Positions 3,553 through 22,699 of a stretch of 26,300 nt of DNA are shown here, piece after piece. Numbering within the stretch: the stretch's first letter is position 1; the number at the start of each line of letters is the position of its first letter. The notes beneath the pieces are model-generated. The model did not search any database and was not told the origin of the DNA. It saw only the letters and a list, made by a program, of their open reading frames with translations. Position numbers and translations under genes: made by a program. The stretch lies in the IMG/VR virus record IMGVR_UViG_2602041671_000009; one strand, given 5' to 3'. Source of the stretch: a virus (Duplodnaviria > Heunggongvirae > Uroviricota > Caudoviricetes).

Positions 3553-4142
3553 ATGTCTCGAATTTTTGCTTACTGTCGGATATCAACGCTGGATCAGACC
3601 ATCGAAAATCAACGCCGGGAAATCGAAAGTGCAGGTTTTAAAATCAAACCTCAGCAAATAATCGAAGAACACATTAGCGGCTCAGCAGCAACCAGTGAGC
3701 GTCCTGGTTTTAACCGGTTGCTTGCTCGCCTGAAATGTGGTGATCAATTGATTGTGACAAAACTGGATCGCCTTGGTTGTAATGCAATGGATATCAGGAA
3801 AACAGTGGAACAACTGACCGAAACAGGTATCAGAGTGCATTGCTTAGCATTGGGGGGCATTGACCTGACCAGTCCAACAGGAAAAATGATGATGCACGTA
3901 ATTTCAGCAGTCGCTGAATTTGAACGAGACCTTTTACTTGAACGCACTCATTCCGGGATAGTAAGAGCCGCGGCGCAGGGAAACGTTTTGGTCGACCACC
4001 TGTGTTAAATGAAGAACAGAAACAGGTGGTATTCGAACGAATTAAGTCAGGTGTAAGTATAAGTGCCATTGCCCGGGAATTCAAAACCTCGCGGCAAACC
4101 ATTTTAAGAGCCAAAGCAAAACTTCAGACACCTGACATATAA
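3553..4142 (+). pseudogene. pin: serine recombinase / DNA invertase (PinR/PinQ-like), frameshifted
   Basis: ORF 3553-4008 encodes the catalytic domain (YCRISTLDQ with nucleophilic Ser, LDRLGCN...). The C-terminal HTH ([53 protein letters not shown]) is in a different frame from 4002 to TAA at 4140-4142. The frame break maps to the GGG/AAA run at 3978-3983. Confidence 0.7.
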
Positions 4143-4237
4143 AATAATCTCGGTGTGAGATGCTTTACGTCTTCCAAGCCCCCTTCCTTGCCGTAAATGG
4201 AAAGATACATCTAATTATAGAATTTATATGTTTTACC

Positions 4238-4813
4238 CTACGGCAGTGCTGGCCATTCAATATCCTGTGCAGTTGACGTATCAACACGGTTCAGCAACAC
4301 CCGATACTTTTTCCAGGCTTCCAGCAATGAGGTTTCTTCCTCCGTTGCGATTTCCAGATCTACAGCATCCTGAAGTGGCGCAATATGCTCACTGGCTACC
4401 TGCATCAGGCTGTTTTTTGTTTCTTCCGCCTCTCGGATCCGGAACAGTTTTTCTGCTTCTGCATCTTTCACCCAGGCTGTGCCGTTCCACTTCTGAAACT
4501 CCCCTTCCGGCGATAACCAGGTAACATTTTCCGGTAACGGACCGAGTTCAGAAATAAATAACGCGTCCCCTGACGCTACGTCATAAACCGTTTTACCCCG
4601 ATGGTCTTCAACGAGATGCCACGATGCCTTATCACTGTTGAAAACAGCCACAAAGCCAGCAGGAATATCTGGTGGTGCAATATCGGTACTGTTTGCTGGC
4701 AGACCTGTATGAGGCGGAATATATGCGTCACCTTCACCAATAAATTCATTAGTTCCGGCCAGCAGATTATAAATTTTTATGGTCCGTGGTTGTTCACTCA
4801 TTCTGAATGCCAT
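4238..4813 (-). CDS. tfa: tail fibre assembly protein Tfa (lambda-like)
   Basis: 191-aa [34 protein letters not shown]... through ...[29 protein letters not shown]. Matches lambda Tfa from memory. Start overlaps the stop of the upstream fibre ORF. Confidence 0.85.
4270..4388. repeat. direct repeat copy 2 (tfa 3' segment)
   Basis: Partner of 1505-1622; same orientation. Confidence 0.7.
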
Positions 4814-5448
4814 TATGCAAGCCTCACAATATAGTTAAATGCGATGTTTTTGACGGTGTTTTCCGCGTTACCAGCAGCGTTAACGGTGATGGTGTGTCCA
4901 TGTGAACCAATCGCAACGGAGTGCGTATGAGCACCAATACCGACAGTATGCGCGTGTGCACCTGCAGATGCTGCTGTGCCGGACAGTGAATGGCTATGAT
5001 TACCATCTGTACTGGTATTCGCTAACCACCCCGTAGACATACCTACTGAGCCTTGTACACCCCAGGTATTTTGACCTGAGCTTGTATAACCATATTGATA
5101 AGTATCTTTAAAAACACTGGGGTTAAATCGACGGCCATCTCTATGGCTGTGATTACCAGCTGCATTCGTGCTGCCACTTAAACTATGGGTATGCGCACCA
5201 GTGTTATTCGTGGATTTAGTGCCGTAATCAAACGACGATGTGGTTTTCGTCCCCAAATCCGTACTGGATGCGCTGGCGCTGTGGGTATGCGATTTAATGC
5301 CGTCCTGTTCCTGAGACAATACGGCCCGACCACTGGCAGGTTTGCCCTTAATCGTCCAGCCACGCATATCCACGATGGCTTCTTTTTCCGGTACATGCTG
5401 CACGGCGGTGATGGCATACGTGCCGTCGTCGTTCTCACGGATACTCAC
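4813..5448 (-). pseudogene. side tail fibre C-terminal portion fused to an internal J segment (chimeric remnant)
   Basis: 211-aa ORF starts [27 protein letters not shown] (recalled as internal to lambda host-specificity protein J), then continues with a histidine-rich HTHS/HSHS repeat region ending ...[11 protein letters not shown], typical of Stf-type fibre C-termini. Confidence 0.6.
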
Positions 5449-5801
5449 GCACCGAAGGTAAAGCGCAGACGGTCGATGTTTGCAGACGTAATGGTGCGGG
5501 TGATCGGCGTGTCATATTTCACTTCCGTACCCAGCACCGTCTCGGAGCCGGAGGATTCAAACCCCTCCGGCGGTGTCTGCTCCTGCTCACCGGCACGGAA
5601 CACCACCGTGACACCGGAGATGTTGGTATTCCCCTCAGTGTCCAGCACCGGCGTACTGTTCAGCAGCACGCTTTTTAATCCATCCACCGGACCTTCAACC
5701 GGCCCTTCGCTGATGGCATCGATCACACTCAGCAACTGCGTGGACTTCAGGTTGTCCTTCGCTTCGCGCGGGGTATGCCCCTTACTGCTTCCTTTACCCA
5801 T
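5445..5801 (-). pseudogene. J: host specificity protein J, N-terminal 118-codon fragment
   Basis: MGKGSSKGHTPREAKDNLKSTQLLSVIDAISEGPVEGPVDGLKSVLLNSTPVLDTEGNTNISGVTVVFRAGEQEQTPPEG... matches the lambda J N-terminus. Frame stops at 5445; J is over 1100 aa in lambda, so most of the gene is missing. Confidence 0.8.
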
Positions 5802-5861
5802 TCCTCACGCTCCATAAATGACAAAACCGCCCGCAGGCGGTTTCACATAAAACATTTTGCA

Positions 5862-6533
5862 TCAGCGACCAATCACCACAACCTGACCACCGTCCCCTTC
5901 GTCTGCCGTGCTGATCTCCTGAGAAACCACGCGTGACCCCACGCGCATTTCCCCGTACAGAACAGGCAGAACATTGCCCTGGGCAACCATGTTATCCAGT
6001 GAGGAGAAATAGGTGTTCTGCTTACCGTTATCCGTTGTCTGTGTACGGGGAGTTCTGGCTTTCGGTGCCAGCATCTGCGCCACACCACCGAGCACCATAC
6101 TGGCACCGAGAGAAAACAGGATGCCGGTCATACCACCGGCCCCAATGGCTGCCCCCCATGCTGCAAGGGTGGCTCCGGCGGTAAAGAATGATCCGGCAAT
6201 GGCGGCAGCCCCCAGGACAATCTGGAATACGCCACCTGACTTGGCCCCGGCGACTCTGGGAACAATATGAATCACAGCGCCATCAGGCAGAGTCTCATGT
6301 AACTGCGCCGTTAACCCGGACGTGCTGACGTCCCGCCCGGCAATCCGTACCTGATACCAGCCGTCGCTCAGTTTCTGACGAAACGCCGGGAGCTGTGTGG
6401 CCAGTGCCCGGATGGCTTCAGCCCCCGTTTTCACACGAAGGTCGATGCGGCGACCAAATCGTTGTAAATCCCCGTAAAGGCAGATGCGCGCCATGCCCGG
6501 TGACGCCAGAGGGAGTGTGTGCGTCGCTGCCAT
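5862..6533 (-). CDS. I: tail tip assembly protein I
   Basis: 223-aa ORF, MAATHTLPLASPGMARICLYGDLQRFGRRIDLRVKTGAEAIRALATQLPAFRQ..., lambda gpI-like with lambda-like K/I overlap. Confidence 0.85.
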   Translation of the reverse strand: MAATHTLPLASPGMARICLYGDLQRFGRRIDLRVKTGAEAIRALATQLPAFRQKLSDGWYQVRIAGRDVSTSGLTAQLHETLPDGAVIHIVPRVAGAKSGGVFQIVLGAAAIAGSFFTAGATLAAWGAAIGAGGMTGILFSLGASMVLGGVAQMLAPKARTPRTQTTDNGKQNTYFSSLDNMVAQGNVLPVLYGEMRVGSRVVSQEISTADEGDGGQVVVIGR

Positions 6534-7174
6534 TTGTCGGTGTACCTCTCTCGTTTGCTCAGTTGTTCAGGAATATGGTGCAGCAGCTCGCCGTCGCCGC
6601 AGTAAATTGCGGCGTGATTCGGCACCGATGAACCAAAACAGCACAGCAGCACATCGCCCGGCTGTGCCGCTGACAACGGCACCTGATACAGCCCCGTCGC
6701 CTCCAGATTATCCAGATAGAGATTCTGGCCGTTACGCCACCAGTCATCCTCACGATGAAAGTCCGGCATCTCAATCCCCGCCAGATGATAAGCATCCCGG
6801 AACAGTGTGTAACAGTCCGTCACACCGTGCTCAAAGCGCCGCCCGGTGAGATGCGGCACACAGCGGAACTTATGAATCGTCCCCCGGCAGACCAGCCACC
6901 ACGGCAAATCACTCTGCACCTGCAGCCGCCGGTCGGCCTCACTCAGCCAGGGCAGACCACCGGGGTGGCTGTGGACCAGCGCCACAATCTCACCCTGCAT
7001 TTCTGCCTGCAGCCAGTCTTCCGGCGACATACGGAAATACGCCTCCGGCTCACCGGAAATATTCACGCAGGGAAAATATCTTTCCCCCTCCGGCGTGCTT
7101 ACCACGAAGCCGCACGACTCCGCTGGCGCACATCGCCGGGCGTGCGCCAGAATCGCTGATTCTGTCTCTGTCAT
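6431..7174 (-). CDS. K: tail tip assembly protein K (JAB/MPN plus NlpC/P60-like)
   Basis: ORF with E...HSHPGG...S..D JAMM-type motif and a downstream Cys-containing hydrolase-like region. Lambda gpK-like. An alternative internal start (MSPEDWLQ, about 7030) is possible. Confidence 0.8.
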   Translation of the reverse strand: MTETESAILAHARRCAPAESCGFVVSTPEGERYFPCVNISGEPEAYFRMSPEDWLQAEMQGEIVALVHSHPGGLPWLSEADRRLQVQSDLPWWLVCRGTIHKFRCVPHLTGRRFEHGVTDCYTLFRDAYHLAGIEMPDFHREDDWWRNGQNLYLDNLEATGLYQVPLSAAQPGDVLLCCFGSSVPNHAAIYCGDGELLHHIPEQLSKRERYTDKWQRRTHSLWRHRAWRASAFTGIYNDLVAASTFV

Positions 7175-7179
7175 GGGAT

Positions 7180-7877
7180 TTACTGCGAAAGTTTGTTAAT
7201 GGAAAGGAAGCCGCCAAAGTTGCCGACGTTATTGCGGAACTTACAACCGCTCAGGCATTTGCTGCATTTATCCTTCGTGATATCGGACGTTGGCTGGTCA
7301 TATTCATCCGCGACAGCCGGACCGCTATAACCGCACTCGTCACCGCGATAGGTCCAGGTGCAGGTGTTGGCCAGCATGATACGTCCCGGAAAACAGCGCC
7401 ATCCGTTTCCGTCGGCGTGGACAGTACAAAAGAGGCACTGACCGCGCTCAGTTCGCTGCACTGCTCAATGCGCCAGCGGCTGATCACCTCCTGCTCCGGA
7501 TCGGCGTCACTGTTTCCGTTGACGAAGTTCACCGCATCCAGAAAACGGGCATAAACCTTACGCCTGACCACCGTTCCGCCGACCAGACTCTGCAGATCTT
7601 CCGCCATCCCGGTGACCATGCCATACAGGTTAGAAACCGTCAGCGTGGGGCGCGTACTGGTGCCTTTGCCATTCAGTTCGAAACCACTCCCCTGAATGGG
7701 ATACGCCTGATACTGTCGCCCCTGCCAGGTGACCGGCTCACCTTTTTCGTTCTGCTCATTACAGAAAAAATAACGTTCTCCACCAACCTCTGTCAGATCG
7801 ATTTCCCAGAGCACCACGCTGGCCGACTGCTCCGCACGGGTGCATTCATTCAGTGTTTCCTGTCGGATATCCTGCAT
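7180..7877 (-). pseudogene. L: minor tail protein L, frameshifted
   Basis: ORF 7251-7877 matches lambda L through ...TETDGAVF and then diverges. ORF 7180-7461 in another frame carries the rest (PGRIMLANTCTWTYRGDECGYSG...FLSINKLSQ). Frames swap at the A4 run at 7390-7393 (T-run on the coding strand). Confidence 0.8.
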
Positions 7878-8206
7878 CAGTTCACCACCTGTTCAAACTC
7901 TGCGCTGAACTCAACACGCAGCATACTGACCCGCGACGACCATTTTGCGCAGGTCACCTTTATCTGCCGGTAGCCATAAGGCGGCGTCCACAGAAAGGCC
8001 TTCCAGCCCCCGTGCTCAGCCAGAAACGACTCCAGCGCCGCGGCCTCCCAACGGGGAACAGAAAGCGTCACGCTGTACGTTTTCAGGTCAGTGTTCAGCC
8101 CGGCAGGCGCTCGCTGGGAATAGCCATCACCAAAGCGCACCTTTCTTACGGAAGGGGCCGAAGCCACATCCATACCGGGTTTCACTTTCCAGCGGAAGGT
8201 TTTCAT
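7877..8206 (-). CDS. M: minor tail protein M
   Basis: 109-aa ORF, MKTFRWKVKPGMDVASAPSVRKVRFGDGYSQRAPAGL...RVSMLRVEFSAEFEQVVN, lambda gpM-like. ATGA overlap with the upstream frame. Confidence 0.88.
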   Translation of the reverse strand: MKTFRWKVKPGMDVASAPSVRKVRFGDGYSQRAPAGLNTDLKTYSVTLSVPRWEAAALESFLAEHGGWKAFLWTPPYGYRQIKVTCAKWSSRVSMLRVEFSAEFEQVVN

Positions 8207-8436
8207 CGTCCACCTCCGGAGAACAGACCACCATCGCGCATCTGCCCGGTCACAACATCCATTGCCGCCTTACGGGCTACGTCATAAACAGCCTTCAGCG
8301 CCTGTGGCCCTAGCTGGCGACGTTGTGCCGCCTCCTCCAGTACCGCGAACTGACTTTCTGCCTTCCACAAATCCCGGCGCTGCTGGCTGATTTTCTCATT
8401 TGCTCCGGCATGCTTCTCCAGCGTCCGGAGTAGCCG
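8203..8436 (-). pseudogene. probable tape-measure (H) 3' remnant
   Basis: Open frame without ATG ending ...MRDGGLFSGGGR with its TGA overlapping the M start (ATGA), as expected for the gene upstream of M. Assignment to H is by position and partial recollection only. Confidence 0.4.
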
Positions 8437-9094
8437 TTATCCGTATCCTGAGCCGTCTGCAGGTTCAGTGAGTCACCCGGCATCAGGTGCGGTACTTTTG
8501 CGCCTCCCAGCCGGACCGGCGCTGCGGCGTAATACGCGGCAATTTCACCAATCCAGCCGGTCAGCCTTTCCCGCTGCTCCTGACTGTTCGCGCCCAGAAT
8601 AAAATCCATCGCTGACTGCGTATCCAGCTCACTCTCAATGGTGGCGGCATACATCGCCTTCACAATGGCGCTCTGCAGCTGCGTGTTCTGCAGCGTGTCG
8701 AGCATCTTCATCTGCTCCATCACGCTGTAAAACACATTTGCACCGCGAGTCTGCCCGTCCTCCACGGGTTCAAAAACGTGAATGAACGAGGCGCGCCCGC
8801 CGGGTAACTCACGGGGTATCCATGTCCATTTCTGCGGCATCCAGCCAGGATACCCGTCCTCGCTGACGTAATATCCCAGCGCCGCACCGCTGTCATTAAT
8901 CTGCACACCGGCACGGCAGTTCCGGCTGTCGCCGGTATTGTTCGGGTTGCTGATGCGCTTCGGGCTGACCATCCGGAACTGTGTCCGGAAAAGCCGCGAC
9001 GAACTGGTATCCAGGTGGCCTGAACGAACAGTTCACCGTTAAAGGCGTGCATGGCCACACCTTCCCGAATCATCATGGTAACCGGCATATTCAC
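8428..9094 (-). pseudogene. B: portal protein B, fragmented (N-terminus missing, internal frameshift, 3' end lost)
   Basis: ORF 8720-9094 contains MMIREGVAMHAFNGELFVQATW and ORF 8310-8972 contains MVSPKRISNPNNTGDSRNCRAGVQIN...QTAQDTDNGYS, both matching internal lambda gpB. Frames swap at a GG run near 9011-9012. Only about 50 bp separate W from the first B fragment, so the B N-terminus is absent. Confidence 0.75.
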
Positions 9095-9145
9095 GCAGCG
9101 ATGTCATGCCGTCCGGCCCCAGAAGGGTGGGAATGGTGGACGTTT

Positions 9146-10824
<1,679 letters not shown>

Positions 10825-10850
<26 letters not shown>

Positions 10851-11370
10851 TCAGCAACCCCGGTATCAGTTCATCCAGCGCGGCTGCTTTGTTCATGGCT
10901 TTGATGATATCCCGTTTCAGGAAATCAACATGTCGGTTTTCCAGTTCCGGAAAACGCCGCTGCACCGACAGGGGGATCCCGTCGAGAATACTGGCAATTT
11001 CACCTGCGATCCGCGACAGCACGAAAGTACAGAATGCGGTTTCCACCACTTCAGCTGAGTCTCTGGCATTCTTCAGTTCCTGTGCGTCGGCCTGCGCACG
11101 CGTAAGTCGATGGCGTTCGTACTCAATAGTCCCTGGCTGGAGATCTGCCTCGCTGGCCTGGCGCAGTTCTTCAACCTCCCGGCGCAGCTTTTCGTTCTCA
11201 ATTTCAGCATCCCTTTCGGCATACCATTTTATAACGGCGGCAGAGTCATAAAGCACCTCATTACCCTTGCCACCGCCTCGCAGAACGGGCATTCCCTGCT
11301 CCTGCCAGTTCTGAATGGTACGGATACTCGCACCGAAAATGTCAGCCAGCTGCTTTTTGTTGACTTCCAT
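10825..11370 (-). CDS. Nu1: terminase small subunit Nu1
   Basis: 181-aa ORF, MEVNKKQLADIFGASIRTIQNWQEQGMPVLRGGGKGNEVLYDSAAVIKWYAERD..., lambda Nu1-like with N-terminal HTH; overlaps the A start. Confidence 0.88.
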
Positions 11371-11379
11371 TGTTCATTC

Positions 11380-11600
11380 CACGGCCAAAAACAGAGAAAG
11401 GAAACGACAAAGGCCCAAAAGTTCGTTTTCAGCACCTGTCGTTTCCTTTCTTTTCAGGGGGTATTTTAAATAAAAACATTAAGTTACGACGAAGAAGAAC
11501 GGAAACGCCTTAAACCGGAAAATTTTCATAAATAGCGAAAACCCGCGAGGTCGCCGCCCCGTAACCTGTCGGATCGCCGGAAAGGACCCGAAAAATGATA
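11380..11600 (-). other. cos region (cosB plus cosN cohesive-end site)
   Basis: Plus strand 11548-11559 reads AGGTCGCCGCCC, the reverse complement of the lambda 12-nt cohesive end GGGCGGCGACCT. It lies about 180 nt upstream of Nu1, as in lambda. Confidence 0.7.
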
Positions 11601-12324: not shown

Positions 12325-12609
12325 TTTGTCGCTCCATGCGCTTGCTCTTCATCTAGCGGTTAAAATATTACTTCAAATCTTTCTGTATGAAGGTTTGAGC
12401 ACGTTGGCCTTACATACATCTGTCGGTTGTATTTCCCTCTAGAATGCCAGCAGGACCGCACTTTGTTACGCAACCAATACTATTAATTGAAAACATTCCT
12501 AATATTTGACATAAATCATCAACAAAACACAAAGAGGTCAGACCAGATTGAAGCGATAAAAACGATAATGCAAACTACGCGCCCTCGTATCACATGGAAG
12601 GTTTTACCA

Positions 12610-13020
12610 ATGGCTCAGGTTGCCATTTTTAAAGAAATATTCGATCAAGTGCGAAAAGATTTAAACTGTGAATTGTTTTATTCTGAACTAAAACGTCACA
12701 ATGTCTCACATTATATTTACTATCTAGCCACAGATAATATTCACATTGTGTTAGAAAACGATAACACCGTGTTAATAAAAGGACTTAAAAAGGTTGTAAA
12801 TGTTAAATTCTCAAGAAATACGCATCTTATAGAAACGTCCTATGATAGGTTGAAATCAAGAGAAATCACATTTCAGCAATACAGGGAAAATCTTGCTAAA
12901 GCAGGAGTTTTCCGATGGGTTACAAATATCCACGAACATAAAAGATATTACTATACCTTTGATAATTCATTACTATTTACTGAGAGCATTCAGAACACTA
13001 CACAAATCTTTCCACGCTAA
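12610..13020 (+). CDS. hypothetical protein (YbcV-like)
   Basis: ORF 12487-13020; the start chosen at ATG 12610 ([13 protein letters not shown]...) gives 136 aa, the length I recall for YbcV. Upstream in-frame ATGs exist. Confidence 0.45.
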
Positions 13021-13309
13021 ATCATAACGTCCGGTTTCTTCCGTGTCAGCACCGGGGTGTTGGCATAATACAATACGTGTACGCGCTAAACCCTGTGTGC
13101 ATCGTTTTTAATTATTCCCGGACACTCCCGCAGAGAAGTTCCCCGTCAGGCTGTGGACATAGTTAATCCGGGAATACAATGACGATTCATCGCACCTGGC
13201 ATACATTAATAAATATTAACAATATGAAATTTCAACTCATTGTTTAGGGTTTGTTTAATTTTCTACACATACGATTCTGCGAACTTCAAAAAGCATCGGG
13301 AATAACACC

Positions 13310-13603
13310 ATGAAAAAAATGCTACTCGCTACTGCGCTGGCCCTGCTTATTACAGGATGTGCTCAACAGACATTTACTGTTCAAAACAAACAGACAGCAG
13401 TAGCACCAAAGGAAACCATCACCCATCATTTCTTCGTTTCTGGAATTGGGCAGAAGAAAACTGTCGATGCAGCTAAAATTTGTGGCGGCGCAGAAAATGT
13501 TGTTAAAACAGAAACCCAGCAAACATTCGTAAATGGATTGCTCGGTTTTATTACTTTAGGCATTTATACTCCGCTGGAAGCGCGTGTGTATTGCTCAAAA
13601 TAA
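13310..13603 (+). CDS. bor: Bor lipoprotein (serum-resistance family)
   Basis: 97-aa ORF, MKKMLLATALALLITGC (lipobox) AQQTFTVQNKQTAVAPKETITHHFFVSGIGQKKTVDAAKICGG..., lambda Bor-like. Opposite strand to the lysis genes, as in lambda. Confidence 0.85.
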   Translation: MKKMLLATALALLITGCAQQTFTVQNKQTAVAPKETITHHFFVSGIGQKKTVDAAKICGGAENVVKTETQQTFVNGLLGFITLGIYTPLEARVYCSK

Positions 13604-13634
13604 TTGCATGAGTTGCCCATCGATATGGTCAGCT

Positions 13635-14107
13635 CTATCTGCACTGCTCATTAATATACTTCTGGGTTCCTTCCAGTTGTTTTTGCATAGTGATCAGCCT
13701 CTCTCTGAGGGTGAAATAATCCCGTTCAGCGGTGTCTGCCAGTCGGGGGGAGGCTGCATTATCCACGCCGGAGGCGTGGTGGCTTCACGCACTGACTGAC
13801 AGACTGCTTTGATGTGCAACCGACGACGACCAGCGGCAACATCATCACGCAGAGCATCATTTTCAGCTTTCGCATCAGCTAACTCCTTCGTGTATTTTGC
13901 ATCGAGCGCAGCAACATCACGCTGACGCATCTGCATGTCAGTAATTGCCGCGTTCGCTAGCTTCAGTTCTCTGGCATTTTTGTCGCGCTGGGCTTTGTAG
14001 GCGATTGCGTTATCACGGTAATGATTGACCGCCCATGACAGGCTGACGATGATGCAGATAATCAGAGCGGATATAATCGCGGTTACTCTGCTCACTGTTG
14101 CCCCCAC
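13635..14107 (-). pseudogene. Rz: i-spanin Rz, frameshifted
   Basis: ORF 13694-14107 matches lambda Rz up to ...CQSVREATT, then reads a proline-rich Rz1-type tail ([26 protein letters not shown]). The expected Rz C-terminus ([21 protein letters not shown]) is encoded in another frame ending at 13635-13637. Confidence 0.6.
13759..13875 (-). pseudogene. Rz1: o-spanin Rz1 remnant (truncated by the same indel)
   Basis: Embedded frame begins [20 protein letters not shown] (lipobox) but stops after about 38 codons. The remaining proline-rich Rz1 sequence is in the Rz frame. Confidence 0.45.
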
Positions 14108-14589
14108 AAACAGACTTCACGCTCAATCTCACGACGAGTCATCAGGCCTTTCCATTGCTTACCGCCAGCGTATGTCCAGCGACGCAGCTGATCACATGCG
14201 CCTTTGATATCGCCCTGGTTTATTTTGCGAAGAAGCGTCGATGTTCTAAAATTGCCAGCACCCACATTGTAAACGAATGAGTAAAGAGCGCCGCGCGTTG
14301 TTTCCGGTATATCGACTTTGATATACGGGTTAATTTGTCTGGCGACAGTGGCAAGGTCTTTATTCAAGAGTGCTTTGCATTCTGCTTTGGTATACGTTTT
14401 ACCGAGCATGATGTCTTTTCCGGTGTGTCCGTGACATACAGTCCATACACCAACAATATCTTTGTATGGTATGTAGCTGACACCTTCCAGACCATCGTTA
14501 CCACTTGGGCCAGTGATTAACACTGATGCTATAGCAATTGCTCCGCCACCAATAGCAGCAGCAACGGCTTTTCGTAATGATGGAGGCAT
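14092..14589 (-). CDS. SAR endolysin (phage 21 R-like lysozyme)
   Basis: 165-aa ORF with a G/A-rich weakly hydrophobic N-terminus ([18 protein letters not shown]), then the [24 protein letters not shown] catalytic region. Start overlaps the holin stop. Confidence 0.82.
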
Positions 14590-14804
14590 TATTCACCTCT
14601 CGCAGCCTTGCGCTTATCTTCTTTAATCTTGAAATAAAGGTTTGTCAGGTACGTCAGCAGGCCAAATACCAGGCTACCCAGCACACCTATTGCTGCCCAC
14701 TGTGAGGGAGTGACTTTATCGAGCAGCTGTAAAAACCAGTAACCGGCACTACCTGCTGAGGTGCCATAGGCGACTCCAGTTGTTAACTTATCCATGAATT
14801 TCAT
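14589..14804 (-). CDS. pinholin (phage 21 S-like), dual-start motif
   Basis: 71-aa product [30 protein letters not shown]... with Met1/Met4 dual start, two TMDs and a charged C-terminus. GAGGTG Shine-Dalgarno precedes ATG at 14804. The ORF-track start at 14849 is probably too far upstream. Confidence 0.78.
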
Positions 14805-15301
14805 AACCCCACCTCGCAGACAAAGCGGGTGTAAATTGAGGGAATACAACGTATCGCAAAAAAGCAGAAACGTAACTGACTCCGAGTCAGTGAATAACTC
14901 AGGTATTGAGTTATCAGCTAATATCGAGACTCAAAAAATGGAAAAACCAGCTCGACGGCGGGTTTAAGCTGTGTGACGAAGTAACCACTCTTAACAGCAT
15001 AACCAATTTTTTACGTACGTAAACCACTGAATGATATTTATGAGAATGCTACCGAGTGTTCAAAACATCACCACAAATACATAAGAAAACCTCAACAAAT
15101 AACCAATAAATAATTTCCAGTGTTATTTTTAGCCGGTTTAAATTAAATAGACGAATTATAGAACCACCATAAATAACAGCCATTAATATAAATTAGCTAA
15201 TAGATTTATTTTTGTTCAAATAAGAGCCATAAATAGGTTTCGATAGAAAAAGTTCAGATAAAAATAGAGATCTACTTCACAAATTAAATGAGAAACTAAA
15301 A

Positions 15302-15321
15302 CTTACATCTTGAAATAATCA
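15302..15321 (+). promoter_or_regulatory. possible OmpR-box-like element upstream of the porin gene
   Basis: CTTACATCTTGAAATAATCA resembles ompC-type OmpR sites (TTTACATTTTGAAACATCTA) as I recall them. Weak, pattern-based. Confidence 0.25.
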
Positions 15322-15391
15322 CATTGATTAGATGAATATTTATCGCGCAGTGACATCATTTTTTAATAATAGTTCAAAAAAAGGGCTCACG

Positions 15392-16489
15392 ATGAAAAAA
15401 TTAACAGTGGCAATTTCTGCTGTAGCTGCATCAGTACTGATGGCGATGTCTGCTCAGGCAGCTGAAATTTATAATAAAGACAGTAACAAGCTGGATCTGT
15501 ACGGGAAAGTTAATGCCAAGCACTACTTTTCCTCTAACGATGCAGATGATGGTGATACTACTTATGTTCGTCTGGGCTTCAAAGGCGAAACCCAAATCAA
15601 CGATCAGCTGACTGGTTTCGGTCAGTGGGAATATGAATTCAAAGGCAACCGCGCTGAATCTCAAGGTTCCTCCAAAGACAAAACCCGTCTTGCATTTGCA
15701 GGCCTGAAATTCGGTGACTACGGCTCAATCGATTACGGCCGTAACTACGGTGTAGCATACGACATCGGTGCGTGGACTGACGTTCTGCCAGAATTCGGTG
15801 GCGATACCTGGACCCAAACAGATGTGTTCATGACTGGTCGCACCACTGGTGTTGCAACCTATCGTAACAACGACTTCTTTGGTCTGGTTGATGGTCTGAA
15901 CTTTGCTGCTCAGTACCAAGGCAAAAACGATCGTAGCGATTTCGATAACTACACCGAAGGTAACGGTGATGGCTTCGGTTTCTCTGCTACCTATGAATAC
16001 GAAGGATTCGGTATCGGTGCAACTTATGCGAAATCTGATCGTACCGACACTCAAGTTAATGCAGGGAAAGTTCTTCCTGAAGTATTTGCTTCCGGTAAAA
16101 ATGCAGAAGTTTGGGCCGCAGGTCTGAAATATGACGCTAACAACATTTACCTGGCCACTACCTATTCTGAAACCCAGAATATGACTGTATTTGCTGATCA
16201 CTTCGTTGCTAATAAAGCTCAAAACTTCGAAGCTGTTGCACAATATCAGTTCGATTTCGGTCTGCGTCCGTCCGTTGCTTACCTGCAATCTAAAGGTAAG
16301 GATCTTGGAGTATGGGGCGATCAGGACTTAGTCAAATATGTTGATGTAGGTGCAACCTATTACTTCAACAAAAATATGTCTACTTTCGTTGATTACAAAA
16401 TCAACCTGCTTGACAAAAATGACTTCACTAAAGCACTCGGTGTAAGCACTGATGACATCGTTGCTGTAGGTCTGGTTTACCAGTTCTAA
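15392..16489 (+). CDS. OmpC-family general porin (prophage-encoded, NmpC/Lc-like)
   Basis: ATG at 15392 with AAGGG upstream. Signal peptide [23 protein letters not shown], mature N-terminus [18 protein letters not shown]-terminal ...VGLVYQF. The ORF-track start at 15332 adds a non-native N-extension. Confidence 0.88.
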
Positions 16490-16678: not shown

Positions 16679-17062
16679 TTAATTAGAGTTATTAACAACG
16701 ATATCCATCTCTAACCGGATATCTAATGCCATTAACATCCCTTCAATTATGCCCTCAGCCTTCTGTAACCTTTTCCCGATATAACCATCAGAGCAGCAAT
16801 GCTTACCTGCCAGTGACATGAATGTCATACCGACTACATAATAATCTACTAATAAATCGTGCAAATCGCTGTTGTTCTTTTTCAGACGGGCCATGCACCC
16901 GCAAATGATCATCGCGTCATCGTCACAACATTGCGGGCGAGATTTTACTTTTGAAGGAATTAATCCCTTAAAACCGGCGGCAATGGACGACCAGGTCACA
17001 TCTTCATGATTATTAGCCGCCCACGCTCCCCAACGTTCAAGAACCATCTGAATATCACGCAT
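16679..17062 (-). CDS. Q: late antiterminator Q (QuuD-like)
   Basis: 127-aa product from ATG 17062 ([26 protein letters not shown]...CGCMARLKK...) with GGAG about 9 nt upstream. Note the frame is open upstream into the methyltransferase. Confidence 0.75.
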
Positions 17063-17797
17063 TAACTTTCTCCACAAAATCAGGCCAGCACACCAATCGC
17101 CAGTGCGCGATCGATAAAACGAAATATCAGCTCCAGCTGGGAGCCATGCCGCCATCTCCCTGACCAGTTTTTCCGCCTGCTGGCGAACCTGCGCCAGAAA
17201 GGCCTCACCACATGCCTCAAGTTCATCGCGCCCGATGTAGCTGATTGCCGGTCCCTTCCAGGTCTTGTCGAAAACAGCAATAGCACCAGCGAAGAAAGCG
17301 CCTGTCGGCACCTGCTTCTCGTCCTTCGGGATAAACCAGGCTGGCAGTTCAAAACCAATACGCCCGCGAATAAAAGCAATATGGTCTGCATCTTCCGGCC
17401 ACCAAACTTCGCTGGTGGCAGCTTTGATCAGGAAAACATAGCGCCCGCCTTTATCACGCATGGCACTGGCATGCTTCATGATGTAACGCATGCCGGTGAT
17501 GTATTGCCCCTCATGCTGACTGGCGCGGCTGTACGGGGGATTACCAAAGGCAGCACCTTTAAGCTCCGCAAGACGTTCTGACCAGTCATGCGCCAGCGCG
17601 TTGTCTTCCGCAGTGTAATAAGCGGCGCATTTGGCGTTATCACCATCAGTAAACAGATCCAGAACAAACGGGCCAAACAGGGTGTTAATTCCCCAGAAAA
17701 TGTTGTCCGGCGTGCGCCACTGATCGCCCACTTCCTTCAGTTCATGGGCTGGTTTGTTCCGCAGCTCCACCAGCGCCTGGCAATATTTATTACTCAT
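17063..17797 (-). CDS. phage Dam-like N6-adenine DNA methyltransferase, in-frame continuous with Q
   Basis: Product [72 protein letters not shown]...FGNPPYSR (NPPY amino-MTase motif). No stop codon separates it from the Q codons; ORF 16679-17830 is one 383-aa frame. Confidence 0.65.
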
Positions 17798-18291
17798 TAA
17801 GCCCCCACGTAATTCCCTGACAGATACCACTCTTCACCCGATGCAGCGCGCTTGCTGCTTTTCCGTAAACACCGCTCACGACGCGCAAGAAAATTGTTTC
17901 GCTCTTGCTGGGAGTGGCTTTCACGGAATGCCGCCATCCACACCGTTGCAGCACGACGGTATAAGCCCCTGGACTCCAGTTCTTCCGCCTGGCGGGTCAG
18001 GCACAAAATCACCCGGGGATCGTTAGTGCCGACATAGAAATTGCGCACAGGTCTGGATTCACGAACTGGTTGCGGTTCCGGCTCCTGCGGTATCTCAGTT
18101 AGCCGCGGGAAATGTCTGCGTGTATCCCCTTCACAACGGTGAGCCACACGCCCACTCTGACGTAACTTGCTTGCTGACTGCAGAACGCGCTGTCGTGAGT
18201 AACCTGCAAAAGCATCCGCAATGTCTCCGGAAGTACACCCCGGATGGGCTTCAATGAATTTCTGAACGTCATTCAAAAGACTCATGATCAC
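17797..18291 (-). CDS. hypothetical early protein (YfdN-like; PerC-like C-terminal motif)
   Basis: 164-aa ORF, translationally coupled on both sides. C-terminal [18 protein letters not shown]...[13 protein letters not shown] resembles PerC-family motifs. Confidence 0.4.
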
Positions 18292-20172: not shown

Positions 20173-20373
20173 CTAATCTTTCGGATAGATATCCGGTCTT
20201 AAGTCAGATTTCGTAATTGCACCTGACGTGCATTGCTCAAGTTTTTTAGCCAGCACAAAACTGGCTTTTTTATAGCCATTGAAAACCAGCCGTAAGTAGC
20301 CAGGTGTTGAGCCAACTTTTCCGGCCAACTCGCCCTGCTGTTCTTTGGTTAAAGAGTCCCAATACGCTTTCAT
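20173..20373 (-). CDS. cro: Cro-like / YdaS-family HTH regulator
   Basis: 66-aa product from ATG 20373 (MKAYWDSLTKEQQGELAGKVGSTPGYLRLVFNGYKKASFVLAKKLEQCTSGAITKSDLRPDIYPKD) with GGAGG upstream; divergent from the repressor gene. The longer ORF-track frame to 20676 would overlap cI. Confidence 0.65.
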   Translation of the reverse strand: MKAYWDSLTKEQQGELAGKVGSTPGYLRLVFNGYKKASFVLAKKLEQCTSGAITKSDLRPDIYPKD

Positions 20374-20463
20374 ACAATATGTACCTCCGGTGTACATATT
20401 ACATGATTGAAATGAACCTTCAAGATACTTGTACCTTAACGGTACAAGGGTTTTAATTTCGTT
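20374..20463. promoter_or_regulatory. divergent cI/cro control region with palindromic operators
   Basis: Perfect inverted repeat CTTGTACC-TTAAC-GGTACAAG at 20428-20448 and near-perfect CAATATGTAC-(7 nt)-GTACATATTA at 20375-20401; both are built on TGTAC half-sites. Confidence 0.55.
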
Positions 20464-21138
20464 ATGAAAACAATCCATGACATCCGGCGGTCTAACGCCA
20501 GAAAACTGAGAGATGGTGTTGGAGGGAATTCTTCCTTTGCCACTATGATTGATCGCGAGCCAACCCAGACCAGCAGGTTTATGGGAGATGGTGCTACTAA
20601 AAATATCGGTGACAGCATGGCACGACACATCGAAAAATGTTTCGACCTGCCTGTCGGATGGCTCGATCAAGAACACCAGACAACGAACATCACAAAAAAA
20701 CCTGATGTTTCAATCACTAATAAACAAATCACATTAGTCCCTGTCATATCATGGGTACAGGCCGGAGCATGGAAAGAAGTTGGATATTCTGAGGTTGATT
20801 TGAGCACAGCAGAAACGTATCCCTGCCCTGTACCCTGTGGGGAAATGACTTATATCTTGCGGGTGATAGGTGATTCAATGATTGATGAGTACCGCCCGGG
20901 AGACATGATTTTTGTCGATCCTGAAGTACCTGCCTGCCACGGTGACGACGTTATTGCATTGATGCACGATACAGGTGAAACCACCTTCAAAAGGTTGATA
21001 GAAGATGGGACACAGCGTTATCTCAAAGCGTTAAACCCAAACTGGCCTGAGCCTTACATTAAGATCAACGGTAATTGCTCTATAATTGGAACTGTGATTT
21101 TCTCAGGAAAACCAAGAAGATACAAAATCAAAGCCTAA
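20464..21138 (+). CDS. cI: CI-type prophage repressor (HTH plus S24 LexA-like peptidase domain)
   Basis: 224-aa ORF with N-terminal HTH and C-terminal GDSM (Ser) ... FSGK (Lys) autocleavage dyad; essentially no SD before the ATG. Confidence 0.8.
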   Translation: MKTIHDIRRSNARKLRDGVGGNSSFATMIDREPTQTSRFMGDGATKNIGDSMARHIEKCFDLPVGWLDQEHQTTNITKKPDVSITNKQITLVPVISWVQAGAWKEVGYSEVDLSTAETYPCPVPCGEMTYILRVIGDSMIDEYRPGDMIFVDPEVPACHGDDVIALMHDTGETTFKRLIEDGTQRYLKALNPNWPEPYIKINGNCSIIGTVIFSGKPRRYKIKA

Positions 21139-21150
21139 TCAATGTTTATG

Positions 21151-21174
21151 AACCTGCTTCGGCAGGTTTTTTAT
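21151..21174 (+). terminator. intrinsic terminator downstream of cI
   Basis: AACCTGC-TTCG-GCAGGTT hairpin followed by a T-run, 13 nt after the cI stop. Confidence 0.65.
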
Positions 21175-21176
21175 AC

Positions 21177-21209
21177 TTGACAATGTACCTATGAGATACA
21201 TAATGTACC
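21177..21209 (+). promoter_or_regulatory. sigma70-like promoter with operator-like ATGTACC repeats (candidate pL-equivalent)
   Basis: TTGACA (21177-21182), 16-bp spacer, CATAAT (21199-21204). Heptamer ATGTACC at 21183-21189 and 21203-21209 shares the TGTAC core with the cI/cro operators. Confidence 0.5.
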
Positions 21210-21351
21210 CAAGAGAAACAACAAACAGGCAGGACGCCCACGAAGTAGCCGCCTGGGGCATATGAAGTCCAGGATGATTCGTTAGCAACAAAAAAGCGCC
21301 CTACAGGACGCTTAGCTCTTTAACAATCTGGATATCCACAACAGTAGTAAT

Positions 21352-21843
21352 CTACAGATTGCCGTTAAGTTTTCTGGACAACTCCTCAATGGATGGAGGC
21401 GATACGTAATCCGGATTTTTATTCATCAGAAACTTATTTTCACAGTGGAGGCACCTGCTTTTATGAAAAAGCTCATCTTCGCTAACCGGGAATGGTTGAA
21501 GTATCGATACTATCTTTTGTCCAAAACATTTTGGGCAAAGATGCATGGTTATGCTGCCACCGTTCACGATTACCTCCTTCGAGTATACAAAAGTACCCGA
21601 CTCAAGTTGGTTAAGGATATAGCCTTCCGTCTGAGCCTCAAAGTTTTCGAATTCTGCAATTTTAGCTTTGAGAGAAGCATTTATTTCTTGATAAGAGCCC
21701 ACCAGTTCAACGAGAGACACGCATTCGCGCTGAATAGACGCAAGCTTTGAGTTCAGCTCACCAATAGCCGCATTTACTTCAGCTTGAGTTTTTGCCTCGT
21801 TCATTAGTTTTGCAATCTGGGCTGTTTCACGAATAGCCGTCAT
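21352..21843 (-). CDS. hypothetical coiled-coil protein with C-terminal CxxC...CxxC zinc-ribbon-like motif
   Basis: 163 aa from ATG 21843 (MTAIRETAQIAKLMNEAKTQAEVNAAIGELNSKLASIQRE...CPKCFGQ...CLHCENK...). Convergent with cI; weak RBS, and the frame is open upstream so the start is uncertain. Confidence 0.45.
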   Translation of the reverse strand: MTAIRETAQIAKLMNEAKTQAEVNAAIGELNSKLASIQRECVSLVELVGSYQEINASLKAKIAEFENFEAQTEGYILNQLESGTFVYSKEVIVNGGSITMHLCPKCFGQKIVSILQPFPVSEDELFHKSRCLHCENKFLMNKNPDYVSPPSIEELSRKLNGNL

Positions 21844-21881
21844 TGCTGCCGTTAATTCAGCGATCACATTGAATACTCTTA

Positions 21882-21927
21882 TTGTTGTTGGGGATATCCA
21901 GATTAACCGAATCCTTGTTGTTGGGGA
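21882..21927. repeat. two direct copies of TTGTTGTTGGGGA(A/T)AT(A)ACCA, 33 bp apart
   Basis: Copies at 21882-21894 and 21915-21927, just upstream of the minus-strand orphan gene start. Confidence 0.55.
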
Positions 21928-22154
21928 ATAACCAGGTCCACCTCGCCTGATGTGGCTAAAAGCAGGCACATAACAGCTAAGTATTTTCAACCAGAGAGAA
22001 TCCTTAGCGTTGTGGTGAATGCGGCTCAGCGCACGCGGGTTAAGGTTGAGGCTGACAGTCGACCTTCTGTGGATACCCACCCGCCTGGTGTGCAACCTTC
22101 GCCAGGCACCGGGAGGCACCCGGCACCACAACTTTATGCTGTGTGTAGTCCTGG

Positions 22155-22198
22155 CGGTACCAGCTTGTACCCTTGCTTCCGGCTGGTACCGTCCTTTT
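22155..22198 (+). terminator. strong hairpin plus T-run (intrinsic-terminator-like) in the GC-rich leader
   Basis: CGGTACCAGC (22155-22164), 17-nt loop, GCTGGTACCG (22182-22191), then TCCTTTTTA. Confidence 0.45.
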
Positions 22199-22336
22199 TA
22201 CAAAACAGAGAAGAGCATCACCGGACGACGGGCTCATAACCCAATCCATCCGGGCGGCGGCCACCACAGGTGTTCTTCTCTGTTTTGTGGAGAAACTAAT
22301 CGGCCTTGCAGGGTCGATATGATGAGGAGCAGCAAA

Positions 22337-22699
22337 ATGGCTAGCGAACGCAGTACTGATGTGCAGGCATTTATCGGGGAGCTGGACGGCGGCGTATTTG
22401 AAACCAAAATCGGCGCAGTTCTCAGTGAAGTCGCTTCCGGTGTGATGAACACGAAAACCAAAGGTAAGGTCTCACTCAACCTGGAAATCGAACCATTTGA
22501 TGAGAACCGTGTGAAAATCAAACACAAACTCTCTTATATTCGCCCGACTAACCGCGGGAAAATTTCCGAAGAAGACACCACCGAAACGCCGATGTATGTC
22601 AATCGCGGTGGTCGCCTGACTATTCTGCAGGAAGACCAGGGACAATTACTGACTCTTGCCGGTGAACCTGACGGAAAACTCCGCGCAGCAGGTCGTTAA
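22337..22699 (+). CDS. hypothetical early-left protein (YfdP-like, 120 aa)
   Basis: ATG 22337 preceded by GAGGAG about 9 nt upstream. The ORF-track frame starts further upstream (22019) across the GC-rich leader and is probably not translated from there. Confidence 0.5.
   Translation: MASERSTDVQAFIGELDGGVFETKIGAVLSEVASGVMNTKTKGKVSLNLEIEPFDENRVKIKHKLSYIRPTNRGKISEEDTTETPMYVNRGGRLTILQEDQGQLLTLAGEPDGKLRAAGR

Follow-up and report, generated by a model that had tools for sequence, protein, structure and literature searches.

The window analyzed here is a 26,300-nucleotide stretch of DNA from a Caudoviricetes virus (IMG/VR record IMGVR_UViG_2602041671_000009), and the present study concerns a single minus-strand gene at its positions 21352 to 21867, next to the repressor gene of a lambdoid prophage. 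Our study reveals that, as judged by sequence, this gene is related, distantly but clearly, to Rip1 (ring interacting pore 1); it belongs to a known family, as a divergent and unannotated representative, and does not carry a new function. We consider it probable (about 0.7) that the gene encodes a single-protein abortive-infection defence of the Rip1 family. The grounds are homology over the full length in both sequence and predicted fold, the size and architecture of the protein, its four cysteines, purifying selection, and the location in a prophage. A probable function is thereby offered for a protein listed as "hypothetical" in all the sources consulted.

Rip1 was reported by Patel et al. 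(Nature 651:1060, 2026), whose findings are given here as summarized in a review (PMC13434031). According to this summary, Rip1 is a prophage-encoded, single-protein abortive-infection defence, and its homologues are widespread in Proteobacteria, chiefly in prophages. Rip1 alone is described as not toxic. Escaper mutations are said to fall in the portal among Pseudomonas phages and, among E. coli phages, in the small terminase (PMC13434031). In the cryo-EM structure, 12 Rip1 subunits encircle an 11-mer small terminase ring; the C-terminal half touches the ring, and the N-terminal amphipathic helices give rise to the pore. Portal or small-terminase rings are thus summarized as templates for a dodecameric Rip1 membrane pore, the complexes permeabilize liposomes and cells, and the infection is aborted late (PMC13434031). 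The same source places the Rip1 gene of Pseudomonas aeruginosa between the small and large terminase genes.

The window protein is a full-length homologue of Rip1

The open reading frame (ORF) and the elements at its start are as follows.

21352 to 21867, minus strand: Rip1-family coding sequence with a GTG start, 171 amino acids (aa), delimited from the ORF, homology, model and selection
21352 to 21843, minus strand: the ORF as first delimited, with an ATG start, 163 aa; an in-frame subset of the 171-aa gene
21876 to 21880, minus strand: Shine-Dalgarno-like AAGAG, 8 nucleotides (nt) 5′ of the GTG, read from the sequence

Searches of the Protein Data Bank (PDB) led to Rip1 by sequence as well as by fold. 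With phmmer, the sole significant chain was 9oox_L (Rip1), at an E value of 5.3e-7; the alignment brought both CxxC pairs into register. When 26 homologues were made into a profile, it matched the same chain at 5.7e-17, its positions 6-151 pairing with residues 16-160 of the 164 in the chain. The entry 9oox is Rip1 of phage HK446 in complex with the small terminase of T6. When an AlphaFold2 model, made from the 26 homologues (mean predicted local distance difference test score, 88), was compared with the PDB by Foldseek, only 9oox_L and 9oox_M passed (E 6e-7, probability 1.00). The target-normalized template modeling scores for these two chains were 0.53 and 0.72, respectively, and the next match had an E value of 0.09. 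Against chain M, the root-mean-square deviation was 3.6 Å over 120 columns.

The relationship extends beyond HK446. Using hhalign, the subfamily of the window protein was aligned with HK446 Rip1, JBD30 gp30, HK620 HkaP and their relatives at 99.96% probability (E 6.4e-39, 162 columns), and BLASTP against JBD30 gp30 gave 29% identity at an E value of 9e-20. The same phage genes were matched by tblastn whether the window protein or HK446 Rip1 was the query, namely HkaP of HK620, HK629 and HK630 and the genes of the P. aeruginosa Mu-like phages DMS3, JBD30, MP38 and D3112. The four cysteines are aligned and invariant across the HK446, JBD30 and HkaP lineages. An exhaustive search with a hidden Markov model placed 2298 clusters (50% identity) in the family at E ≤ 1e-3. 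Of the best 150 of these 2298 clusters, almost all measured about 140-180 aa, and the match took in practically the whole length. The same 150 include sequences closely related to HK446 Rip1, HkaP and JBD30 gp30, and the Rip1-like sequences therefore form a continuum. In PHROGs, the protein belongs to phrog_1244 (E 9.3e-60, residues 5-156 against positions 5-153 of the 157 in the profile).

The architecture of the protein is that of Rip1. In the model, two long N-terminal helices (residues 2-24 and 28-79, in the numbering of the 171-aa form) are followed by a β-rich C-terminal domain (residues 84-150) that carries the motifs CPKC and CLHC in the manner of a zinc ribbon. These cysteines (C111, C114, C139 and C142) are invariant in the 26 subfamily members. 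As modeled, the 171-aa product is a single soluble protein with a predicted zinc ribbon. Conservation within the subfamily, expressed as mean pairwise identity, is highest in the first N-terminal helix (72%) and lowest in the loop between the two cysteine knuckles (32%, with insertions and deletions) and in the C-terminal tail (24%). In sequence terms, such a variable loop and tail beside a conserved helix fit a diversifying recognition surface joined to a conserved effector.

In sequence homology, size, architecture, cysteines and predicted fold, the protein agrees with Rip1; the terminase-flanked location is not shared. JBD30 gp30 lies on the opposite strand between the large terminase gene and gp29, a "DNA binding protein" gene that we take to be the small terminase gene, in keeping with the position given in the review for P. 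aeruginosa Rip1. The window gene lies instead between cI/PL and yfdP. Since HK446 Rip1 is not between terminase genes either, terminase flanking does not define the family.

These results change the standing of the gene. The initial annotation, made from the sequence alone, had delimited a minus-strand gene of about 163 aa with a long helical N-terminal half and a CPKC...CLHC motif; the ORF and this architecture are confirmed, with the start moved upstream. The same annotation had regarded the gene as an orphan without a characterized family and as the best candidate in the window for an undescribed function. Neither view holds, given the full-length homology to Rip1 (PDB 9oox, 5.7e-17; hhalign, 99.96%) and the publication of the structure and mechanism of Rip1 in 2026. 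Its suggestion of exclusion or defence cargo fares better: defence is probable by homology to Rip1, and only the novelty is lost, as this function has already been described. It had also stated that it would be refuted if the product confidently matched a phage protein already known to be structural or regulatory; the confident match that exists is to a known defence protein instead.

The ORF is a real gene and very probably starts at GTG

Three features of the homologues and one of the leader place the true start very probably at the GTG at 21867 (171 aa) and not at the ATG at 21843 (163 aa; 492 nt, 21352-21843). Nine extra N-terminal residues (MIAELxAAM) are kept in homologues down to 50% identity, Cronobacter has an ATG at the codon homologous to the GTG, and the BLASTP alignment with JBD30 gp30 begins at residue 1 of the 171-aa form. 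Besides, the Shine-Dalgarno-like AAGAG precedes the GTG, and its GAG is preserved at the same spacing in homologous loci. Inspection of the sequence revealed no Shine-Dalgarno or ribosome-binding site ahead of the ATG at 21843. The RefSeq start (WP_000559922.1) agrees with the GTG at 21867. A still longer frame of 259 aa, which reaches 22131, was rejected as an arginine-rich in-frame read-through of the leader; the starts of homologues do not support it.

The gene is under purifying selection. The ratio dN/dS was 0.13-0.24 in the seven pairs for which dS could be estimated, the comparisons with the copies in E. coli O157, Salmonella and Citrobacter included; in the remaining three pairs, all of which involve Cronobacter, dS was saturated. 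The low ratios show that the ORF is a real gene. Furthermore, the identical protein occurs on at least 1000 contigs, where it is named "hypothetical protein" throughout, and the cluster of the O157 variant holds a longer call, "unknown protein encoded by prophage CP-933N." At least 80% of the query region is covered in 385 of the 5426 complete E. coli genomes.

The gene lies antisense in the early-left operon

The window is an SfV/SfIV/e14-type lambdoid prophage adjoining an integrase gene. The ECOR29 locus is 99.9% identical, and its integrase gene (intD) abuts a tRNA-Arg gene (argU). The immunity region contains the following features next to the Rip1-like gene.

20464 to 21138, plus strand: cI-type repressor gene (LexA/S24 family, labeled ymfK in ECOR29), convergent with the Rip1-like gene
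21150 to 21169, plus strand: terminator stem of the cI transcript, an annotated terminator in SfV
21177 to 21220, plus strand: PL-type early-left promoter with two operator-like repeats, directed antisense through the Rip1-like gene

The sequence TTGACA-16-CATAAT at 21177-21204 matches the promoter consensus at 11 of 12 positions. It is overlapped by operator-like ATGTACC..GATACAT repeats, which recur in the cI-cro intergenic region (repeat families D1 and D4; 20379-20429). As this motif is common to the cI-cro region, the promoter at 21177 is taken as PL-type and repressor-controlled. The full set comprises ATGTACC-N6-GATACAT and related palindromes at 20370-20430 and 21182-21220, consistent with the OR and OL sites of the resident repressor.

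Between PL and the yfdP-yfdQ-...-xis-int genes, the prophages have a variable slot. Some strains have no cargo there; SfV and others have small genes on the plus strand, and SfIV has a different minus-strand gene (SfIV_36, of the ECs1072 family). Thus, the placement put forward in the initial annotation is borne out in each part: the gene is convergent with cI (the S24-peptidase repressor), antisense to the promoter at 21177, and accessory cargo in a variable slot by the repressor, which is empty or otherwise occupied in SfV, SfIV and other E. coli prophages.

Homologues occupy comparable places. In an E. coli O157:H7 prophage, a gene of 93-94% identity stands beside a RacR-type repressor, and the shared DNA corresponds to positions 21315-21975 of the window. 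The Citrobacter homologue lies between cI and xis-int, the Cronobacter homologue between the repressor region and kilR of a Rac-like prophage, and the Salmonella homologue on the cro side of the immunity region; the HK446 Rip1 and HK620 HkaP genes are just downstream of N. In 8 of 8 contexts examined, the family member is opposite in strand to the surrounding lytic operon. We infer that a gene so placed could be expressed in the lysogen and, upon induction, be turned off by convergent transcription, the latter because the gene is antisense in the operon of a repressor-controlled lytic promoter.

A conserved module carries the gene

The Rip1-like gene is enclosed by short conserved elements, listed below.

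21879 to 21904, minus strand: upstream arm AATCTGGATATCCCCAACAACAATAA (gene orientation) of an inverted repeat (pair I1, 26 nt, 85% complementary)
21325 to 21350, minus strand: downstream arm of the inverted repeat, between the stop codon and the terminator
21868 to 21975, minus strand: conserved leader of about 105 nt, with a second copy of CCCCAACAACAA at 21909-21926; the presumed promoter site
21284 to 21313, minus strand: intrinsic terminator of the gene (stem 21313-21294, then a T-run), kept in homologous loci
21315 to 21326, plus strand: exact GCTCTTTAACAA on the early-left sense strand, the single exact match in the window

The upstream arm is present in the O157, Salmonella, Citrobacter, Cronobacter and SfIV cassettes. 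Across homologous modules the arms are 13-26 nt long. All contexts have the core AATCTGGATATCC of the arms in identical form, including those in which the proteins share only about 55% identity and synonymous sites have reached saturation. When 59 distinct leaders were aligned, some 90 nt formed a nearly invariant block. Beyond the downstream arm come a conserved GTTAAAGAGC and then the terminator, a region that reads GCTCTTTAACAA on the PL sense strand, directly after the hairpin that is the terminator of the gene on the other strand. We take GCTCTTTAACAA to be the boxA consensus of the rrn/P22 type. A second boxA near PR was sought and rejected, as the only candidate was a two-mismatch match inside cro, within chance expectation. 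Empty slots, like those whose cargo is on the plus strand, lack the arms, the leader elements and GCTCTTTAACAA.

The module carries other cargo as well. At least 120 loci with the leader motif exist in IMG/VR, and among the 120 listed, an ECs1072-family protein is found in 71 and Rip1-like proteins in 33. About 8 of the 120 (L037, L075, L084, L086, L089, L095, L099 and L105) have a third cargo, in which a proline-rich peptide of 25-43 aa (..YEERHMPPFKRPEPP..) precedes a protein of about 150 aa that begins MTRDD.IFD..Y...; hydrophobic stretches suggest that the latter is a membrane protein. Neither the ECs1072-type nor the third cargo had a Pfam match. Scans of the ECs1072-type cargo against PADLOC and the PDB gave no significant match. 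The third cargo, scanned with PADLOC alone of these two, gave a marginal "4TM effector" match (E 0.008). Its identification as SieB was considered and found unsupported by Pfam and PADLOC.

The arms could be a protein-binding site, a recombination site or an RNA element. Pairing between the 5′ and 3′ untranslated regions, or an RNase III stem, was considered and is unsupported: the core is conserved in sequence, there are no compensatory changes, and the extended arm of Cronobacter is not maintained. An invertible element of the Pin/Hin type was considered and rejected, as the cargo is always antisense to the flanking early genes and no inverted copies were seen; moreover, the arms presumably do not resemble hix or gix sites. 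A tentative and rather doubtful extension of these findings is that a leader with two copies of CCCCAACAACAA, arms with AATCTGGATATCC and a terminator with boxA-like GCTCTTTAACAA make up an undescribed module, which would insert antisense in the early operons of unrelated lambdoid prophages and swap candidate defence cargo under lysogen-specific expression and shut-off on induction. The alternative candidate cargoes would then be the Rip1-like protein, the ECs1072 family, and the small peptide with the predicted membrane protein.

Proposed mechanism and alternatives

In the mechanism that we propose, the lysogen would make the 171-aa protein from its own leader, and the protein would be harmless alone. 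Once a superinfecting phage enters late expression, its small terminase or portal rings would be bound by the C-terminal zinc-ribbon domain. The phage ring would template a ring of about 12 subunits of the window protein, and the N-terminal helices of this ring would form a pore in the inner membrane. In this way, the cell would die or lyse ahead of finished progeny. When the resident prophage is induced, convergent transcription could silence the gene, so that the phage would not set off the sensor that it encodes. For the window protein, we thus infer that it forms a pore, what its trigger is, that the lysogen expresses it and that it protects.

Several observations weigh against this proposal. 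Identity to the experimentally studied Rip1 proteins is only 27-29%, at which level the specificity for the trigger, and conceivably the outcome of the effector, may differ. PADLOC (2023), Pfam and NCBIfam are without a model for the Rip1-like family. Specifically, a Pfam scan of the protein gave nothing at the cut-off (best, TMF_TATA_bd at 17.8 bits versus 29.1), a PADLOC (2023) scan gave only REase_I (E 0.063), and an NCBIfam scan gave nothing above the cut-off; the sub-threshold matches in all three are coiled-coil noise. A transmembrane segment is lacking in the 171-aa protein (maximum KD19, 0.85). Over residues 1-80, the hydrophobic moment averages 0.27 versus 0.20 ± 0.04 for shuffled sequences (p ~0.05), and the maximum window is no higher than in shuffles; as HK446 and JBD30 Rip1 score no better, this measure of amphipathicity has little power to discriminate. 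When the minus strand was scanned with weights for sigma-70 promoters, nothing convincing came to light upstream of the gene, the best candidate being the weak TTCCCC-17-TAATCT. Besides, the mechanism of Rip1 itself is taken here from a review summary, a meeting report and the title of a PDB entry.

Some of these points would suit a protein of the Rip1 fold that protects its host otherwise, either by superinfection exclusion or by sensing another phage product with a non-pore outcome. We hold this to be unlikely. The low identity to the solved Rip1 and the hydrophobic-moment scores barely above those of shuffles would agree with it, as would the highly variable inter-knuckle loop and tail and the depositors' label of hkaP of HK620, which occupies the equivalent slot ("putative superinfection exclusion protein"). 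However, this label is positional and not experimental, the end-to-end homology includes the helical half that forms the pore in Rip1, and the N-terminal helix is the best-conserved segment of the window protein. A decaying or silent remnant without current function in its host is very improbable. The window prophage is defective and a strong promoter was not found, yet the ORF is intact, the exact protein recurs on contigs and in complete E. coli genomes in the numbers given above, dN/dS is low, and the start codon, the Shine-Dalgarno sequence and the terminator are all conserved.

It is also quite improbable that the gene serves the resident prophage, whether by timing lysis through its own terminase or portal rings or by regulation of the early-left operon through the transcription unit, the terminator or the boxA-like element. 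The module does stand directly downstream of PL, with a terminator hairpin and an exact GCTCTTTAACAA on the PL sense strand, and its non-coding parts are better conserved than the protein. Nevertheless, unrelated cargo proteins occur in the same module, so the protein is dispensable for a role in cis, and the slot is empty in related prophages that retain the flanking early-left genes. Purifying selection on the protein itself, and its intact gene in a prophage without head genes and most tail genes, argue in the same direction. Furthermore, the characterized Rip1 proteins are summarized as targeting other phages (PMC13434031). We therefore retain a Rip1-type abortive-infection defence as the preferred explanation.

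Other features of the prophage

A highly structured, GC-rich RNA diverges from the leader of the Rip1-like gene.

21979 to 22202, plus strand: STnc100/PasD-type structured RNA, just upstream of yfdP

The match to Rfam STnc100 (RF02076) is full-length and scores 42.4 bits, slightly below the gathering score of 47 (E 1.6e-7). Folding z scores of positions 21960-22340 were −6.2 for the plus strand versus −2.4 for the minus strand, and an 18-bp stem at 22200-22217/22271-22288, a terminator-like hairpin, follows the structured RNA. A 2026 preprint ties STnc100 to the prophage small RNA PasD. On the same strand, a 226-aa ORF (22019-22699) runs in frame into yfdP (22337-22699) and is one protein in the SfIV annotation. 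PGAP labels the part upstream of yfdP "frameshifted hypothetical protein." The 100 codons upstream of yfdP are probably non-coding, since they coincide with the structured RNA and the PHROG profile covers the yfdP part only.

The prophage appears to be defective, with the Rip1-like gene nevertheless intact. In the region of about 4200-11400, a gpA-type large terminase ORF of 514 aa has a nuclease domain that matches its profile at positions 2-177 of 294 only. Next comes a 220-aa portal fragment, which directly adjoins minor tail genes: M, L (in two ORFs), K and I. Among the ORFs scanned, there were neither head genes nor major tail genes, nor a J gene. A match to Rfam IS009 (RF02111; 226.7 bits, gathering score 117) lies at 4272-4470 on the minus strand, inside a tail-fibre-assembly gene (4238-4813), and a resolvase-family invertase gene is present at 3553-4008.

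A 383-aa ORF at 16679-17830 on the minus strand joins a Dam methyltransferase domain (residues 29-209) to an antiterminator Q domain (257-374). ECOR29 has a gene of its own for the methyltransferase (217 aa), and the joined ORF may reflect either a fusion or the choice of the longest ORF. Accessory cargo of the late region spans 12487-16489 and includes a Porin_1 gene between Q and the lysis genes (15332-16489, plus strand), a bor gene (13310-13603) and a DUF1398 gene (12487-13020).

Significance and comparison with known systems

With the window gene, the Rip1 family gains a divergent branch in enterobacteria, located at another prophage position, the immunity region. Current defence-finder profiles (PADLOC 2023) miss the Rip1-like family. 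The subfamily may already be in the catalogue of Patel et al., as these authors reportedly surveyed homologues widely. Small terminase or portal rings are predicted as triggers that can be tested. Besides, the antisense placement and the cargo module could aid the discovery of defence genes and the understanding of how prophages avoid triggering their own sensors.

RexAB of lambda and SieB of lambda and P22, with which the initial annotation compared the slot, are accessory exclusion genes in the vicinity of the repressor or PL; lysogens express them, and they act by aborting or excluding other phages. The window protein has no sequence relationship to them (no Pfam or PADLOC match). Furthermore, those systems are a membrane protein or a two-component system, whereas the window encodes a single soluble zinc-ribbon protein. 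PHROG phrog_1244, in which the protein is placed, is itself without an assigned function and so contributes family membership without a mechanism.

HkaP of HK620, also found in HK629 and HK630, is 28% identical to the window protein by tblastn and 31-34% identical to some subfamily members. Like the window gene, it is antisense in the PL operon; the exclusion label given by its depositors derives from its position. The P. aeruginosa Rip1 (JBD30 gp30/DMS3/D3112 orf25 type) has the same length and cysteines and is likewise on the strand opposite to the lytic genes, but its place is between the small terminase gene and the large one, in a transposable phage of another genus.

HK446 Rip1 (gp37, YP_007111990.1) is 27% identical to the window protein. 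Its gene is just downstream of N, whereas the window gene follows PL beside cI, and it lacks the conserved leader and inverted-repeat module of the window gene. In length (164 versus 171 aa), in the two parts of the protein (helices and a β/zinc-ribbon domain with CxxC...CxxC) and in their end-to-end alignment, the two proteins correspond. Both are encoded by genes of lambdoid E. coli phages that lie antisense in the PL operon.

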